Shown piece after piece: positions 35,977 through 42,759 of a stretch of DNA of 64,000 nucleotides; positions within the stretch are counted from its first letter, which is position 1, and each line of letters begins with the position of its first letter. Origin of the DNA: Candidatus Aminicenantes bacterium (lineage in GTDB: Bacteria > Acidobacteriota > Aminicenantia > UBA2199); assembly GCA_011772425.1 (NCBI GenBank), contig WVZO01000393.1, forward strand, positions 1,615 to 65,614. The letters are read 5' to 3'. A program made the translations under genes and the position numbers. The notes beneath the pieces are model-generated. The model searched no databases and was not told the origin of the DNA. It was given only the letters and a program-made list of their open reading frames with translations.

Positions 35977-37065
35977 ATGAAAAAAAATAAATTGGATTAT
36001 AAGCAATATGTGACCTTTATTAACAGGGAAACCGAACTAAACGAGCTGAGAAATTTTGTGGATAAAGAACCGTTCGAAATTCTATTTCTTCATGGTCCCA
36101 AATCATCGGGAAAAACAACACTGCTGTATAAATTTTTTGAGCAGGTAGAAAAAGAACAAAAAATGGATGTCAAGTACCTGAACCTGAGAAAAAAATTCAA
36201 AGGTAATTATAAAGATTTCATCCGGATTTTTTTCGGTATCGATTATTCCCGGTCAAAAGAAGATGTGAAAGAGAAACGGGAATACAGTTTATTCAATTTT
36301 TTTAAACTATCGGTTGAAGTTTTAAAAGGGGTGGAGAGCGGCGAACTGGACCCCTTTGAAATAATGGAAAAGGAGTTCATAAAGCTAAATCAAAAAGGCA
36401 TCAAACCTGTGGTGATTATCGACGAACTCCAGGCCATCGATCATATCTACATGAACAATGGGAAAGACCGGCAGGTGGTCATCGAATTGTTTAATTTTTT
36501 TGTGGCCATGACCAAGGAGAGTCATTTGGCCCACATCATTATTGCTTCCTCGGATGGGTATTTTTTAAATACGGTGTATACCGATTCACGATTGAAAAAA
36601 ACCTCTAAATTTTACAAAGTGGATTATCTTCCCAAGGAAGATGTCATGGAGTGGTTATTGAACCTGGAAAAGTATTCGAAGATAAAAGATTATAAGTTAA
36701 CGCGGGAAGACGCAGAAAAGATATGGGATGTAGTAGGCGGCAGTATGTGGGAAATCAATGATATATTGGGCGATCTTTTCGACAAACCCATTGACGAGGT
36801 CTTAACTCTTTATAAAAAGAAAATGAGGGGATTGATCGTGGATTATGTGGTAAAACCGGAACAGGAAGATATTGTACGATTACTCAACCATTTTGTTAAA
36901 AATGATCAATTGCCCAAAGAGATGATAAATTCTGAAGAGGAGAAACTTCTTAGAGATTTGGTAAGGAACAACCTTTTATATTTTGACCCCACGGAAGCCA
37001 CCTATTATCCCCAGGGCAGGAGTTACCATTGGGGAATTCGCTTGTATTTTAAACGTTTAACCTGA
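35977..37065 (+). CDS. Archaeal-type AAA+/STAND-like ATPase (Arch_ATPase-like) with a C-terminal winged-helix-like region
   Basis: The N-terminus is FINRETELNELRNFVDKEPFEILFLHGPKSSGKTTLL (Walker A). The Walker B is VVIIDELQ and a sensor-like segment is HIIIASSD. Confidence 0.7.
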   Translation: MKKNKLDYKQYVTFINRETELNELRNFVDKEPFEILFLHGPKSSGKTTLLYKFFEQVEKEQKMDVKYLNLRKKFKGNYKDFIRIFFGIDYSRSKEDVKEKREYSLFNFFKLSVEVLKGVESGELDPFEIMEKEFIKLNQKGIKPVVIIDELQAIDHIYMNNGKDRQVVIELFNFFVAMTKESHLAHIIIASSDGYFLNTVYTDSRLKKTSKFYKVDYLPKEDVMEWLLNLEKYSKIKDYKLTREDAEKIWDVVGGSMWEINDILGDLFDKPIDEVLTLYKKKMRGLIVDYVVKPEQEDIVRLLNHFVKNDQLPKEMINSEEEKLLRDLVRNNLLYFDPTEATYYPQGRSYHWGIRLYFKRLT

Positions 37066-37086
37066 TAGCATGTTATCCGGAAAATA

Positions 37087-40000
37087 TCAATCATTTTGGG
37101 TTTCTTTTCCAACTTTCTCTAATATTGCCCTCAATGCTTTTTTGGTCTCTTCTTCCACCTCTAACTGTTCGATGGCTCCCGCTACATCCCAGTTCTTTAT
37201 CTTCATCAATTTGTAAAGGTTCCTAATTGTTATATTTGTATTATAATCATCCCCATATTTGTAAAAAATTTCCAAGGTGAGACTAAAATACCACATAGAT
37301 AATACATAATCCTTCTCAGCTTTTGCTATATTACCTAACTCACCATAGACCATCGCCTGCCCATACTTATCATTGAATTCTTGACAAATCTTTAAATCTT
37401 GCAATAAATTTTTTTTTGCCTCATTCAAGTCTCCCTCTTCTTGAGCAACAATTCCCAATCCATGGTAAGTCTTTGCTTGAGCATAAACATCATTGAATTC
37501 ATGGTGAATTTTTAAAGCCTCATTGAAATTTTTTTTCGCCTCTTCCCAGTTTTGCTCTTCAAATGCCACCATACCTAATTGATGGTAATTGTTTGCTTGA
37601 CTTTGTCTGTCATTGTAATCCTGGTTAATTTTTAATGCTTTCAAGTAATTTTTTTTTGCTTCTATCCAATCTTCCTCCTCATAAGCAACATTTCCTAACT
37701 GGTGATAAGTAGATGCTTGGCCACGTTTGTTATATAATTCTTGCTTTATTTTCAATGCTTCATGATAATTTCGCTTTGCTTCCTTAAAATCCCGCTCTCC
37801 ATGGGCAACCATGCCTAATTGGTGGTAATTCACAGCTGTATCTTTTAAATTTCCAACCTGTTTAAGAAGGTTCAAAGACCTTTCATAGTTTTTTCTTGCT
37901 TCTGAAAATCTATTAATCTGTAAGTAATTTGTTCCCAAATCTCCAATTACATAGGCATATTCTGTCAAAAATTTTTGGTCTTTTTTTGAAAATAAATTTA
38001 ATTTATTAAGTACACCTTCTATTATTTTGATGGCCTCTTGATAAAGTGGTTGATGGAGATAAAATTTCGCAAATAACGAATAAATAGGATAAAAATCATC
38101 TTTGGTATCCAATAGCCAGTGCATAGCTTTGAAGAGGTTTTCCTTATCATATTCAAAAAGTTTGAACCCTAACTGCTTTATTTCTGCATTATCTGTATTG
38201 TTGGCTTCCATGAAAAGCTTATAGTTATTTGCAATAGTTGTCATATAGCCACAGAAGGCCTGTTCAAGGGTTACCTTTTCTTCCCTATCAAGAAATTGCT
38301 CAACCCGCTGCCCTAGAAAAAATGGAAGGACCGGTTGAATGGTATAGCAATTGGGAAAGATTTTTTTAAGTAATCCTTGTATTTCTCCCTGATGCAGGGC
38401 CTCCTTCAAGTTTTCAAGTGTGAGATTGGAATATGAAGTAGATTTCTGGAGACCTTTTAAATAGACTTCCAAGGACATAGTATTCAGGAAGGATGTGAAA
38501 GGGGCGAAAACCAACAGACTATTTTGGACTTCAGGATCTAAAAGGGAGAAGGAGATATTAATGCATTTGAAAATCTCTTCCGATACCTTTCTTCCTTTGA
38601 GATCGATATCTCTACCCATCAGCATTTCCCGCAATTCTTTCGCACTTCGAGTGCCCAGATTGGGTAGAATAATTTCCATTGCCAACGGGTAACCTGCAAG
38701 GATATTCATTAACCGGTTAAATTCATCACGGTCATCGATAGGGATATTCTTCACTATTCTCTCGGCCATGGCGTAACGGGACACCATATCCAACCCTTCA
38801 AGAACATAAACTTTGTCCTTAAAGGTATGTTTACCCAACCATGGCTCGTTTGAACGAGAACCCAGTAAGATTTTAATACTGGACCGCATCAAGGTTTTGA
38901 GTACTCGAACTAATTTATCCTGCTCTGTTTTTTCAAGCCTGCTTCCAGCAGCCTGCTCCGTGCCGGCAATAGACTCCATGTTATCCAATATCAAAAGCAC
39001 GGCGGATGTTTCCTTGCTTTTTTTGAGAAAATCCGCAAGGGCCATCGCTTTCATTTCTACATCCGGGGTCGCCAAGAATGTCCCATATTCTCCTTGGGGC
39101 GTCACGATTTCCGCAATGGTATTCAAAATCTCTTCCGCATGATACGGTTTTCTGTCGTATCCGAAATAAAACACATGATCGATCCATCCGGTTTTCATCC
39201 ACCATTGTGCCATGTGTCCCAACAGCGTAGTCTTGCCTGTTCCCCCCATACCTTTAATCAGTAAGATATTTTTTTCCAATAAAAGTGATTCGATAGAGAG
39301 AATATCCACGTCTCTACCCAGGAAACCATATTGACCTTCGGTTTTCACACCTTCCAGTTCCTTTTCCCTCTGCCGTTCTTGTTCCAGGTAAGCAATTTTC
39401 TCGTCTGTATCCAGCTTTTGCAACTGCAAATGGAGTGTAAAATCCCCTTTCCCCCAGACCACCGGCAAGAGCCAGTCTTCCAGGTCAACTCTCATCTCTT
39501 TGCTAAAGAATCTACATCCATCATCGAACATACCCTGGCGGGCCTTGTTCAAGGCATTACCCGGCTCTTCTCCCTGTGTTAAAGCATCGTAAAGAGTTTT
39601 CATCATGATTTGTGCACCAATCACGGTTAAGGACCAGGTCATACCTAACACCAACCTCACTCCCCTTTCAAGGAAAGTCATAGCCAGTGAAGCATCAAGG
39701 GCTAAGGCTCTTTCTACTGATTCTTTCTCTTTTTCAGACAACTTCCATGTCGCCATACTGGACTGGCAGGCATTGAGAAAACAAACCGGCACATGGGCCT
39801 CCCTGAGAAGATCGGCTGCCACATCCGCAGGCACCAGGTCATCACCCCATTCTCTCCCTACAAGGTCGATAAATGCACGTGTTCCTTCATACGCTTCCAC
39901 AGCCCTTTGTCCCCTACTCTTCCCGTTCAAGCTTTTATCCATTAATGTTTTATACTGGGGGAAACTCAGCACACAACCGTGTACGTCGAAATGGACAATA

Positions 40001-40677
40001 TGGTAAAATCCCTTCTTCTCCCTCAAATGTTCTGTTAACGACTGAAGGGTTGGCGGCCGAAGCAAGTGGACTCGTACCTGCATCCGGTTTTTCTCAATAG
40101 TTTCCACCACTGGACGAGTAATGGTGCGGTATTCGATGTCATCTTTACCCCCTGGCCGTGCAGTTACCATTAAAAGATTCAAACAGGAACTGGACTGTAC
40201 TTTCAAATCGGGAGTAACCGCCCCCGACGTCCGGATGAATTCCACGCCCATTAAACAAAATGCCTTCGATTCTTGTGGGTCTTTTAAAGATTCCCAGTGC
40301 ATTGCCTGGAATGCCGGATCCCTGGAATATACCTGAACTCTAATCTTATCCAGATCGTTCACCAGGTTTCGCCACTCTGTCAGCGCTTCGTTTTGGATAA
40401 ACAGGCTGGAAAACAATGATTCCCCATAAAAGGCGATACTTTTCTCTGCACGTTTTGCCCGTTCCCTATCGGTAAAGGGTGAAGACAGGTGGTCCTCGAA
40501 ATACCATCGCAACCTTTCTTCCTGATCGGTTTCGATCTCTCCCGGTTCTATGAATGGGTCCCGGATCGTCACTTCATAACAATTGTCCGAAGGGAAAACC
40601 ACTTCCGCCCGGAAAACGCGGTCCTCAACTTTCTCCTTTCCAATAATCTTAACAATTTTCATATCTACTTTTACCAC
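37087..40677 (-). CDS. CHAT (caspase-like protease)-NB-ARC/STAND NTPase-TPR protein
   Basis: YHIVHFDVHG and VPVCFLNACQS form the His/Cys dyad. The Walker A is GMGGTGKTT and the Walker B is AVLLILDN. The C-terminus has ~40-aa TPR units (YHQLGMVA..AKKNY..ALKI). The track start is GTG 40677; ATG 40662 (MKIVKIIG) is an alternative. Confidence 0.88.
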   Translation of the reverse strand: MVKVDMKIVKIIGKEKVEDRVFRAEVVFPSDNCYEVTIRDPFIEPGEIETDQEERLRWYFEDHLSSPFTDRERAKRAEKSIAFYGESLFSSLFIQNEALTEWRNLVNDLDKIRVQVYSRDPAFQAMHWESLKDPQESKAFCLMGVEFIRTSGAVTPDLKVQSSSCLNLLMVTARPGGKDDIEYRTITRPVVETIEKNRMQVRVHLLRPPTLQSLTEHLREKKGFYHIVHFDVHGCVLSFPQYKTLMDKSLNGKSRGQRAVEAYEGTRAFIDLVGREWGDDLVPADVAADLLREAHVPVCFLNACQSSMATWKLSEKEKESVERALALDASLAMTFLERGVRLVLGMTWSLTVIGAQIMMKTLYDALTQGEEPGNALNKARQGMFDDGCRFFSKEMRVDLEDWLLPVVWGKGDFTLHLQLQKLDTDEKIAYLEQERQREKELEGVKTEGQYGFLGRDVDILSIESLLLEKNILLIKGMGGTGKTTLLGHMAQWWMKTGWIDHVFYFGYDRKPYHAEEILNTIAEIVTPQGEYGTFLATPDVEMKAMALADFLKKSKETSAVLLILDNMESIAGTEQAAGSRLEKTEQDKLVRVLKTLMRSSIKILLGSRSNEPWLGKHTFKDKVYVLEGLDMVSRYAMAERIVKNIPIDDRDEFNRLMNILAGYPLAMEIILPNLGTRSAKELREMLMGRDIDLKGRKVSEEIFKCINISFSLLDPEVQNSLLVFAPFTSFLNTMSLEVYLKGLQKSTSYSNLTLENLKEALHQGEIQGLLKKIFPNCYTIQPVLPFFLGQRVEQFLDREEKVTLEQAFCGYMTTIANNYKLFMEANNTDNAEIKQLGFKLFEYDKENLFKAMHWLLDTKDDFYPIYSLFAKFYLHQPLYQEAIKIIEGVLNKLNLFSKKDQKFLTEYAYVIGDLGTNYLQINRFSEARKNYERSLNLLKQVGNLKDTAVNYHQLGMVAHGERDFKEAKRNYHEALKIKQELYNKRGQASTYHQLGNVAYEEEDWIEAKKNYLKALKINQDYNDRQSQANNYHQLGMVAFEEQNWEEAKKNFNEALKIHHEFNDVYAQAKTYHGLGIVAQEEGDLNEAKKNLLQDLKICQEFNDKYGQAMVYGELGNIAKAEKDYVLSMWYFSLTLEIFYKYGDDYNTNITIRNLYKLMKIKNWDVAGAIEQLEVEEETKKALRAILEKVGKETQND
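37258..38070 (-). other. TPR sensor array
   Basis: From about aa 870-1140 there are at least six 40-42 aa units with a Y(H/G)xLGxVAxxxxxxxEAKKNYxxALKIxxE core. Confidence 0.75.
38398..39330 (-). other. NB-ARC/STAND NTPase module
   Basis: The P-loop GMGGTGKTT lies at nt 39226-39252. The Walker B is LLILDN near aa 561-566. LLGSRS and GYPLAMEI follow, resembling NB-ARC RNBS/GLPL-type motifs. Confidence 0.75.
39448..40185 (-). other. CHAT/caspase-like protease domain of the STAND protein
   Basis: It covers about aa 165-410. The catalytic-type His is near aa 233 (nt 39979-39981, context HFDVHG). The Cys is near aa 304 (nt 39766-39768, context LNACQS). Confidence 0.75.
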
Positions 40678-40696
40678 ACCCTGTAAAAAAAATCAA
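40668..40696 (-). promoter_or_regulatory. Promoter-like TTGATT-N17-TAAAAG immediately upstream of the ATG at 40662
   Basis: The minus strand reads aattgattttttttacagggtgtggtaaaagtagatATG. If this promoter is used, the transcript would start at or next to ATG 40662. Confidence 0.35.
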
Positions 40697-40778
40697 TTAT
40701 TAGGCCGCAGTTTGACACAGATTTACGCAGATATAATTTTTGTTTACGAAGGGCACGAAATTTTTTGTCGTTTGTTGA

Positions 40779-41312
40779 TTATCCCTCAATCATCACTTTT
40801 ACAGTTTCGGCAAGTGGGAATTTATCCTTTTGAAGCCCTATCATTTTCTCAAAATAGTTAAATATACGAGAATAGCATTCCATAAAGATTTTCCCGGCAA
40901 CCAAAAAAACAATTAAATCAAAGCAGACTTTTGTCGAATCAAATCCACCTAAATCAATCCATTTGTCAGTATAATTGGATTTCTGTAAATGCTCATCATA
41001 TTTGGACTCCACCATTTCTACAATCTTATCATAGGTTTTGGCTTTCCGTATGGCATCATACAAATATGAAAAATCCTCTTCGGGTTCAAATATTTCCAAT
41101 TGAGCTTTGATAAAATCCACCAATCCGTCCTCTATCAATTCCTTCTTAATGATCCAGGAAACACTCTCATCATCTTCGATTTTATCGTACAAACTTAAAT
41201 TCACTTCTTTTTTTAATGCTTCGTCTGCCCTGTCCAGGGAAGCACCGTGTTTCAAATCTTCCTTGTAAATCGTAATTTTCCTGCATACTCCGACGCACAT
41301 AAACTGTCCCAT
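40779..41312 (-). CDS. Hypothetical acidic 177-aa protein (candidate partner of the CHAT-STAND gene)
   Basis: GGAGG lies 7 nt upstream of the ATG. The N-terminus is MGQFMCVGVC, with no TM segment and a composition that looks mostly helical. I recognise no family. Confidence 0.65.
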   Translation of the reverse strand: MGQFMCVGVCRKITIYKEDLKHGASLDRADEALKKEVNLSLYDKIEDDESVSWIIKKELIEDGLVDFIKAQLEIFEPEEDFSYLYDAIRKAKTYDKIVEMVESKYDEHLQKSNYTDKWIDLGGFDSTKVCFDLIVFLVAGKIFMECYSRIFNYFEKMIGLQKDKFPLAETVKVMIEG

Positions 41313-41332
41313 AAATAACCTCCTTCTTTATA

Positions 41333-41362
41333 CTTTTACCATAAGCCATAGGAAAAAATCAA
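41333..41362 (-). promoter_or_regulatory. Promoter-like TTGATT-N18-TAAAAG upstream of the 177-aa gene
   Basis: The minus strand reads aattgattttttcctatggcttatggtaaaagtataaagaaggaggttatttATG. It shares the AATTGATTTTTT and TGGTAAAAGTA blocks with the region upstream of the CHAT gene. Confidence 0.35.
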
Positions 41363-41436
41363 TTTTTTTGCCACAGATTACAACGATCATAATGGGGCAC
41401 GACATTAAGAAGCAACGTACAATGGTTGACCGTGTA

Positions 41437-41493
41437 TAAAAAGCTTTTGCGGGGGTCCAGGGGGCAGTTTTCTCGAAAAGAGTCCCCTGGCAA
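41437..41493. repeat. Third copy of the GC-hairpin REP-like element seen at 4587-4778
   Basis: aaaaagcttttgcgggggtccagggggcagttttctcgaaaagagtcccctggcaaa matches the reverse complement of the 4598-4655 arm. The differences are G-run lengths and one substitution. It lies 19-75 nt downstream of the kbl-like stop codon. Confidence 0.85.
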
Positions 41494-41511
41494 AATAAAT
41501 ACAATATTTTT

Positions 41512-42759
41512 CTATTGCCCGTACATGTCGATGACTTCTTGTTTGGTTTTGTGCAGGATGTCGTACTTCTTCCCTACGTTGATGAAGGCATCCAATGCTT
41601 TTTCCAGGTGGTGCAGCTCATGAGCGGCTGAAATCTGGGTGCGAATCCGGGCCTGACCTTTAGGTACCACAGGAAAGAAAAAGCCAATAGCATAAATACC
41701 AAGATCATAAAGGTCTTTGGCAAAATCCTGCGAAAGCTTGGCATTGAAAAGCATTACCGGTACAATTGGGGTTTCACCTTCTTTAAGAATAAAACCGGCA
41801 TCGGTCAGTCCTTTTCTCCAAAAATTGGTGTTGTTTTCCAATTTGTCCCGCCGTTCCGTGGTTTTTGAAATCAGGTTCAACACAGCCAACGCACCTTCCA
41901 CAATGACGGGAGGCATGGTGTTGGAAAAAAGATACGGTCTGGCTTTTTGCCGGCACATTTCTACCAGCTCTCCCCGGCCGGATACACAGCCGCCGGACGC
42001 TCCACCTAACGCTTTACCCAGGGTAGTGGTAATAATATCGATCTTTCCGAATACGCCGCAGTGTTCATGGGTTCCTCTCCCGGTTTTGCCGATAAACCCG
42101 GTGGCGTGAGAGTCATCCACGAAAACCATGGCGTTATATTTTTCCGCCAGTTCCACGATCCGGTCCAGTTTGGCCAAGTCACCGTCCATGGAAAAGTTGC
42201 CATCGGTGATAATCATTTTCAACCGCCTGTCCTGGTGCAGTTGGAGTTTCTTCTCCAGGTGTTTCATGTCAGAGTGCTTGAAGCTGTCTTGCATGGCTTT
42301 ACACAACCGCATCCCGTCGATGATGGAAGCATGCACCAACCGGTCGGCGATCATGACGTCATCTTCGGTTAATATGGCCTCAAATACACCGCAGTTGGCA
42401 TCCATGCAGGAGGGAAAAAGAATGGTGTCTTCGGTTCCCAGGAATTCGCTTAATTTATCTTCCAGTTGTTTATGGATATCCTGGGTGCCGCAGATAAATC
42501 GAACCGAAGACATCCCATAACCCCGGTGGTCCAATCCTTTGCGCGCCGCCTCAACCACTTCAGGAAGAGAGGAGAGTCCCAGGTAATTATTGGCACACAT
42601 GTTAATGACTCTCTTCTCTTTGGTCCCCACAGGAAAAACCACTTCAATCTCCGAATCCTGGGGAGCACAAATGATTCGTTCCTCTTTGAAAAGTCCTGCT
42701 TCCTTAAGATTGCTCAACTCATCCTGGAAAATCTTTCTATTCTCATCGCTAAAAGCCAT
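41512..42759 (-). CDS. kbl: Alpha-oxoamine synthase, closest by motif to glycine C-acetyltransferase (2-amino-3-ketobutyrate CoA ligase)
   Basis: The match to the Kbl pattern I remember is near-collinear: GLFKEERII, NMCANNYLGL, SVRFICGTQDIHK, HASIIDGMRLCKA, DDSHATGFIGKTGRGTHE, TTLGKALGGASGG, RPYLFSNT, FFFPVVPKGQARIRTQISAAH. Confidence 0.85.
   Translation of the reverse strand: MAFSDENRKIFQDELSNLKEAGLFKEERIICAPQDSEIEVVFPVGTKEKRVINMCANNYLGLSSLPEVVEAARKGLDHRGYGMSSVRFICGTQDIHKQLEDKLSEFLGTEDTILFPSCMDANCGVFEAILTEDDVMIADRLVHASIIDGMRLCKAMQDSFKHSDMKHLEKKLQLHQDRRLKMIITDGNFSMDGDLAKLDRIVELAEKYNAMVFVDDSHATGFIGKTGRGTHEHCGVFGKIDIITTTLGKALGGASGGCVSGRGELVEMCRQKARPYLFSNTMPPVIVEGALAVLNLISKTTERRDKLENNTNFWRKGLTDAGFILKEGETPIVPVMLFNAKLSQDFAKDLYDLGIYAIGFFFPVVPKGQARIRTQISAAHELHHLEKALDAFINVGKKYDILHKTKQEVIDMYGQ

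Follow-up and report, generated by a model that had tools for sequence, protein, structure and literature searches.

Bacterial gasdermin (bGSDM) systems have been described in which CHAT or C14 proteases are fused to NACHT domains or repeats (Johnson et al., 10.1101/2021.06.07.447441, Science 2022). EACC2-caspase proteins combine an α+β domain, a caspase domain and a variable C-terminus that includes STAND NTPases, and they occur with a small upstream TRADD-N partner or alone (Kaur, Iyer, Burroughs, Aravind, eLife 2021, PMC8195603). The gene analysed here lies in a 64,000-nt stretch of Candidatus Aminicenantes DNA (assembly GCA_011772425.1, contig WVZO01000393.1, positions 1,615 to 65,614; hereafter the window, in whose coordinates positions are given unless another locus is named). 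It encodes a CHAT protease followed by a STAND-type P-loop NTPase and a tetratricopeptide repeat (TPR) array, and is one more example of a well-documented bacterial class in which a caspase-like protease is joined to a sensor like those of receptors that carry leucine-rich repeats and a nucleotide-binding domain (NLRs). We consider it probable that its product is a self-contained NLR-like conflict or defence protein, encoded beside an unrelated small island gene of 177 codons. A preliminary description of the window had likewise recognised a protease-armed NLR-like protein, which the CHAT, STAND and TPR architecture and a gasdermin-linked orthologue bear out. It had also proposed that the two genes form a protease-substrate system, and this proposal is not supported. 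The large gene and its parts are as follows.

37087..40662, minus strand: CHAT-STAND-TPR gene, 1191 aa from the likely start at ATG 40662 (the public gene call is likewise 1191 aa)
40183..40662, minus strand: N-terminal α+β lobe, aa 1-160, probably non-catalytic, with near-invariant LEWYFE and HWE..KDP motifs and AlphaFold2 (AF2) predicted local distance difference test (pLDDT) scores mostly >90
39343..40182, minus strand: catalytic CHAT (caspase-like) lobe, aa 161-440, identified by PF12770, its dyad and the AF2 model
38023..39342, minus strand: STAND-type P-loop NTPase and predicted oligomerisation module, aa 441-880, with Walker A and B motifs and subthreshold Pfam scores
37090..38022, minus strand: TPR array and putative sensor, aa 881-1191, six units of about 40 aa

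The 1196-aa open reading frame (ORF) originally reported on the minus strand does exist as the longest version of the gene, running from a GTG at 40677 to 37087. The likely start is however the ATG at 40662, which gives 1191 aa and from which residues are numbered here. Counted from this ATG, the intergenic gap to the 177-aa gene is 116 nt and not 101 nt.

The Pfam CHAT family PF12770 matches aa 193-383 with 47.4 bits (cutoff 24). The caspase/CHAT dyad proposed earlier was found at exactly the codons given for it, with His228 in YHIVHFDVHG (39979-39981) and Cys299 in VPVCFLNACQS (39766-39768). Both residues are invariant in an alignment of 106 homologues, and in the AF2 model the β-strands 222-226 and 293-296 directly precede them, as in caspases. 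The model of residues 1-440 has a pLDDT of 87.5 and a predicted template modelling score (pTM) of 0.88, and Foldseek matched it to Csx29/TPR-CHAT, SAVED-CHAT, the anti-sigma factor DdvA, separases, gingipain and caspases. For Csx29, SAVED-CHAT, DdvA and separase the E-values were 6e-9 to 1e-6 at a probability of 1.00, with modest template modelling (TM) scores of about 0.5, and the alignments to Csx29, DdvA and separase extended over about 410-430 columns of the 440-aa model. Because these alignments span most of the model and because aa 1-160 are conserved family-wide (LEWYFE and FQALHWEALKDP are near-invariant across the 106 sequences), the N-terminal region is best read as the predicted non-catalytic lobe of a two-lobed CHAT/separase-type protease module rather than as an extra domain. 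The earlier view that these 160 residues hold no recognisable motif was thus abandoned, since the region has motifs of its own in homologues. By analogy, this lobe, to which no Pfam model gave a match, may be the EACC2 domain of Kaur et al. 2021.

The first 440 aa of the large protein retrieved 453 protein homologues, and relatives of the large protein were found in at least 546 metagenome stretches. Of the 453 homologues, 120 were listed, and in most of these the match takes in about 85-100% of the 440-aa query. Cyanobacteria, Chloroflexi and Desulfobacterales are among the groups of origin, and many of the proteins run on into an NB-ARC or NACHT domain.

The domain order is CHAT, NTPase, TPR, with the P-loop domain between the effector and the repeats. 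Walker A (GMGGTGKTT, 39226-39252) and the hhhhD-type Walker B (AVLLILDN, 38980-39003) are both exactly where the preliminary description had placed them. The best Pfam scores for the NTPase were just under the cutoffs for nSTAND3 (25.6 bits, cutoff 27.2) and NACHT (25.2 bits, cutoff 26.7). The specific label NB-ARC did not hold for the window protein: PF00931 was not among the 23 Pfam families with E <= 0.01 for the large protein, and the families that the NTPase does match are all of STAND type, each just short of its cutoff. Homologues do carry precomputed matches to PF00931 (NB-ARC; many of them) or to PF05729. The NTPase region gave zero sequence matches to solved structures. The count of at least six TPR units of about 40 aa was reproduced, with TPR_12 scoring 130 bits in 6 stretches and the repeat cores located.

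A syntenic relative, locus L001, carries an orthologue (L001 1562-5482) that was compared with the window protein part by part. Identity was 96% in the N-lobe, 89% in the CHAT lobe, 77% in the STAND region and 55% in the TPR array, and insertions of 40 and 80 aa give the L001 protein three additional TPR units. Divergence that climbs from the effector to the sensor, together with a differing number of TPR units, is the pattern expected of an immune receptor.

Comparison with the described systems places the window protein close to several of them. As in the gasdermin systems, a CHAT protease is fused to a STAND NTPase and TPRs, so that sensor and protease share one polypeptide, and the logic is presumably the same. 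A 67%-identical orthologue at locus L007 has a bacterial gasdermin gene 131 nt downstream (L007 7198-8040; PF26164; PADLOC bGSDM E = 3.6e-58), which fits the published bGSDM-CHAT/NACHT/TPR systems. In contrast, no gasdermin was detected in the window by a Pfam scan of the neighbouring genes or by a tblastn search of the complete window with the L007 bGSDM, and the 177-aa protein shows no homology to gasdermin and no structural likeness. The L007 orthologue is called as a 710-aa and a 451-aa ORF, the latter corresponding to the TPR tail. Similar calls of 2-3 consecutive ORFs were seen for the close homologues at L007, L008, L072-L074 and L081 (for example 710+451, 735+350 and 330+815 aa), and these could be frameshifts or pseudogenes, genuine splits or assembly errors.

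With the EACC2-caspase proteins the window protein has in common an α+β N-lobe, a caspase-like domain and a STAND C-terminus. The likeness extends to a small upstream partner in distant relatives: a homologous ORF of about 100-125 aa lies directly upstream of the CHAT-STAND gene in 20 of 53 distant loci of about 35% identity (L090, L094, L099, L102, L108, L110, L115, L120, L123, L124, L126, L139, L143-L146, L148, L149, L151 and L153). The gaps are -22 to +49 nt, and the ORF is probably translationally coupled to the CHAT-STAND gene. This family of about 105 aa has a conserved N-terminus with a YxIALSPDLxIS..F..AWN motif, a central hydrophobic segment and a conserved acidic PDG..LLV..EE tail, and matched nothing in Pfam or PADLOC. 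The family may, by analogy, be the one that Kaur et al. 2021 describe as the TRADD-N partner; a role as membrane-active effector is the alternative. The gene upstream of the window's CHAT gene belongs, unlike these, to another family; a relationship between the 177-aa protein and the ~105-aa partner was rejected at an hhalign probability of 0.3%. Among the close orthologues at L008, L072, L078 and L079 no conserved partner was found. Judged from these loci, the CHAT clade appears to act alone or with interchangeable partners (a gasdermin, the ~105-aa protein or none).

The best structural matches of the 440-aa module were Csx29 of the type III-E CRISPR Craspase (8eex_B, E = 6e-9) and SAVED-CHAT (8tl0, E = 6e-8), which, as predicted for the window protein, are two-lobed, allosterically activated proteases, although sequence identity to them is merely 9-16%. 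Unlike Craspase and SAVED-CHAT, the window has no Cas7-11/gRAMP, CRISPR array or SAVED domain: a repeat search of 36900-41700 returned no CRISPR-like array, and Cas7-11/gRAMP was not among eight flanking ORFs. Activation would presumably run through the fused STAND NTPase, with neither an RNA-guided complex nor a cyclic nucleotide involved. The order of N-terminal effector, central STAND NTPase and C-terminal repeat sensor, with the sensor as the most variable part, is that of Avs and bNACHT proteins, from which the window protein differs in having a CHAT protease as effector instead of a nuclease, SIR2 or TIR domain. The PADLOC models for Avs and bNACHT gave no match, and the only PADLOC matches were to generic TPR models and weakly to mad8 (E = 8e-4).

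On this basis, we propose that the C-terminal TPR array would bind a trigger, most likely a phage protein or another foreign protein, and that binding would free the central STAND NTPase for nucleotide-dependent oligomerisation. Oligomerisation would then gather the two-lobed CHAT proteases, rendering the His228/Cys299 site active, and the protease would cleave one or more target proteins that are not encoded at the locus. At L007 the adjoining gasdermin is the presumed target. The expected outcome would be growth arrest or cell death.

The gene that had been proposed as the partner of the protease is the following.

40779..41312, minus strand: gene for an acidic α/β protein of 177 aa, described by its ratio of nonsynonymous to synonymous substitution rates (dN/dS), its ribosome-binding site, its HMMER family and its AF2 model

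Read from its sequence, the 177-aa ORF is a real gene. Its dN/dS is 0.12-0.22 over three sequences, and a strong AAGGAGG ribosome-binding site is kept upstream of it in all three. The preliminary description had cast its product as a substrate, pro-toxin or regulator of the CHAT protease, in a pairing that might be new. Co-occurrence was checked in both directions, with the genome loci of the small family searched for CHAT-STAND-TPR genes and the CHAT loci searched for the small family. Of 62 small-family genome loci retrieved (from Rickettsiales, Legionellaceae, Burkholderiales, Paenibacillus, Clostridia, Bacteroidales and others), 54 were analysed, and none has an ORF homologous to any of four segments of the large protein. 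Neither CHAT, caspase, STAND nor TPR families were among the commonest Pfam families in 93 immediate neighbours of small-family genes. Conversely, the small-family profile hidden Markov model (HMM) found no member at nine other CHAT loci (L007, L008, L071-L077) or at 80 metagenome CHAT loci. The pairing is limited to the window, of which L006 is an identical copy, and to L001, whose common descent with the window suffices as an explanation. The family is thus not conserved beside homologous CHAT-STAND genes, a result that speaks against the proposed role of the 177-aa protein as well as against the supposed new pairing. The small gene probably functions independently of the CHAT gene, and we infer that it adjoins it through lineage-specific history and not as a dedicated substrate or regulator.

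Closer relatives of the small gene also have other surroundings. The gene for an 81%-identical homologue (L002-L005) has a WD40 gene before it and an unrelated gene of 316 aa after it; the latter had been considered as a truncated CHAT gene, which would have placed the pairing in three lineages, and tblastn showed it to be unrelated. A 54% homologue lies near an LVIVD β-propeller gene, and a 46% homologue adjoins an apparent PD-(D/E)XK (PDDEXK_2-like) gene, as judged from the N-terminal sequence alone.

A word-indexed search returned 2 relatives only and would have left the 177-aa protein an orphan. At E <= 1e-3, exhaustive HMMER searching then yielded 311 representative clusters, 122 of them with E <= 1e-10. 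Nearly all members are standalone proteins of about 175-190 aa, with conserved motifs at the N-terminus (MGxYL..GI) and at the C-terminus (YPIA.CVKV) and a conserved GKIxME(C/S)Y motif; G140-K141...E145-Y147 are invariant. None of 116 members matched any Pfam family, and a PADLOC scan of these members gave one marginal match. The window's own 177-aa protein had no match in Pfam, NCBIfam, PADLOC or PHROG, and the earlier statement that it has no recognisable domain stands. The small family was absent from IMG/VR, INPHARED phages and PLSDB. Two of the 62 retrieved loci (L013 and L014) belong to a Caedimonas metagenome-assembled genome, which carries at least two copies.

An AF2 model of the 177-aa protein built from a deep alignment (pLDDT 95.8, pTM 0.90) has a mixed α/β fold with long β-hairpins. 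It had been called acidic and helical; the first part was right (isoelectric point 4.8), and the second does not agree with the model. The most hydrophobic stretch lies within a modelled β-hairpin and is therefore not a transmembrane helix. Against PDB and BFVD the model gave nothing significant (best E 0.035; TM <=0.24 in PDB and <=0.31 in BFVD), and the family profile had no match among PDB chain sequences. A gasdermin or gasdermin-like identity was rejected on sequence and on fold, in agreement with the initial impression that the protein is not gasdermin-like.

Around the small-family genes, the commonest Pfam families in the immediate neighbours were PDDEXK_2, AAA-ATPase_like/PDDEXK_9, AAA_14/DUF4143, HEPN/MNT-type nucleotidyltransferases and GmrSD. 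Within four genes of the small-family member, PDDEXK_2 occurred in 11 of the 54 loci, AAA-ATPase_like with PDDEXK_9 in 6 and AAA_14 with DUF4143 in 4. The order and orientation of the PDDEXK_2 (Rpn-like) and AAA-type neighbours varied (L009-L070). The small family tends toward variable, defence-type islands.

Two copies of a short element lie upstream of the two genes.

40666..40713, minus strand: promoter-like element (TTGATT, N17, TG-n-TAAAAG) before the CHAT gene, ending 3 nt before its ATG and conserved in L001
41331..41379, minus strand: second copy of the ~48-nt element, before the small gene (direct repeats D2 and D3), missing at this place in L001

The element has the consensus AAnCTGnGGC..AATTGATTTTTT, N12-13, TGGTAAAAGTA. 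By eye and by pattern search it has 2 matches in the 64-kb window, where 0 are expected by chance. Since L001 lacks the copy that precedes the small gene, the element is not a conserved feature of the gene pair. The homology between the window and L001 also ends inside this copy (at about 41345), and the two observations together suggest that the CHAT promoter was locally duplicated or recombined. A sigma-70 scan gave promoter-like sites at a frequency no higher than that in shuffled sequence, and the scan for terminators gave none. A Shine-Dalgarno sequence is lacking before the CHAT gene, where a putative -10 hexamer stops about 5 nt short of ATG 40662 (40660-40700, minus strand). The gene may therefore be translated from a leaderless mRNA.

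On the other side of the CHAT gene lies an orphan gene on the opposite strand.

35977..37065, plus strand: orphan gene of the ATPase_2 family (PF01637) whose C-terminus is MJ1010-like; it converges on the CHAT gene and corresponds to an indel between thyX and CHAT relative to L001

This gene is context and not part of the CHAT system. The eight flanking ORFs scanned (about 33.8-45.8 kb) comprise AAA_28, thyX, ATPase_2, an aminotransferase, an AMP-binding enzyme and a phosphatidylserine decarboxylase. The downstream thyX and AAA_28 are also present in L001. Homology between the two loci runs from about 41345 to about 37074 at 83% nucleotide identity, breaks over ATPase_2 and resumes at 91.5%. 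Upstream of its small gene, L001 carries a DUF4276 protein (L001 70-801) with matches to HEC-01B and PDC-M25B, candidate defence systems in PADLOC. This chromosomal spot thus hosts differing defence-type cassettes in close relatives. With ATPase_2 inserted in the window and DUF4276 beside the L001 pair, it has the character of a small, variable islet flanked by housekeeping genes. Related sequences might point to a Desulfobacterales-like source. No tRNA, rRNA or Rfam match (at the gathering threshold) was found in the 64-kb window.

Several points weigh against the reading of the large protein as a self-contained defence protein beside an unrelated gene. Its NTPase region is under every Pfam STAND cutoff, and the PADLOC models recognise neither its CHAT nor its STAND part. 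The flanks are housekeeping genes (thyX, aminotransferase), which makes the site a mini-islet and not a classical defence island. The same flanks fit a different role, in which the protein would be a protease of regulation or development and would process an endogenous regulator on a cellular signal, like HetF- or DdvA-type CHAT proteins. The Foldseek match to the CHAT-containing anti-sigma factor DdvA (8rot_A, E = 1.1e-7) agrees with this, as do the ties of EACC2-caspase proteins to extracytoplasmic function (ECF) sigma factors and transcriptional outputs (Kaur et al. 2021, PMC8195603) and the enrichment of the large-protein family in cyanobacteria, Chloroflexi and Desulfobacterales, groups often described as multicellular. 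We nevertheless regard a regulatory role as unlikely. Neither a sigma factor, DUF1822 nor a transmembrane segment is present at the locus, fast divergence marks the sensor end, whose repeats differ in number between close relatives, a gasdermin accompanies one orthologue (L007), and the locus shows presence/absence variation with a candidate defence cassette beside the L001 pair.

The remaining objection concerns the small gene: both genes lie on one strand, share the ~48-nt element and are not separated by a predicted terminator, so co-regulation or a locally evolved link is possible. A two-gene output, in which the activated CHAT protease would cleave the 177-aa protein as substrate, pro-toxin or regulator in the place of gasdermin, would draw on this arrangement of adjacent genes 116 nt apart, on the retention of the pair as a block in L001 despite a different upstream flank, and on an upstream element that no other gene in the window has. 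The CHAT clade is moreover often partnered, by the ~105-aa family or by a gasdermin, and its varying partners make an exchange at that position plausible. Even so, we judge this output unlikely, and slightly less likely than a regulatory role. The small family is never next to a CHAT, STAND or TPR gene in its 54 analysed genome loci and is missing from the 89 other CHAT loci; among the Pfam families listed for its neighbours, one M13 peptidase is the sole peptidase. The homologues at 81% and 54%, and apparently the one at 46%, keep other company, the 177-aa protein is related neither to the ~105-aa family nor to gasdermin, and its model is compact (pLDDT >84 throughout), with no disordered linker suggestive of a cleavage site. 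The shared element, finally, is missing before the small gene of L001. Genuine functional coupling of the two genes seems to us improbable, and equally so its specific form in which the CHAT-STAND-TPR protease would have recruited a member of the ~180-aa family as substrate or effector into the gasdermin/~105-aa slot, with the ~48-nt element co-regulating both. Least likely of all, and in our estimate very doubtful, is that the small gene functions with other island genes (AAA/PD-(D/E)XK-type orphans, represented here by ATPase_2) instead of with CHAT. The recurrence of PDDEXK_2, AAA-ATPase_like with PDDEXK_9 and AAA_14 with DUF4143 near small-family genes, and the ATPase_2 gene about 3.7 kb from the small gene in the window, count in favour of such a partnership; however, order, orientation and spacing to these neighbours are not fixed, and L001 keeps the small gene without ATPase_2. 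Gene families of the AAA/PD-(D/E)XK type are multi-copy residents of islands, and co-location with them need not imply a common function.

If the large gene does encode a self-contained NLR-like defence protein, as we consider probable, the window would add little beyond cataloguing. Recruitment of the small protein by the protease, should it be true, would define a new class of protease-activated effector and give the small family its first function. That family is of modest interest in its own right, being large, taxonomically broad and wholly unannotated, with a confidently predicted fold that has no match in PDB or BFVD. The CHAT clade, for its part, is useful for asking what caspase-like NLR proteases cleave when there is no gasdermin.

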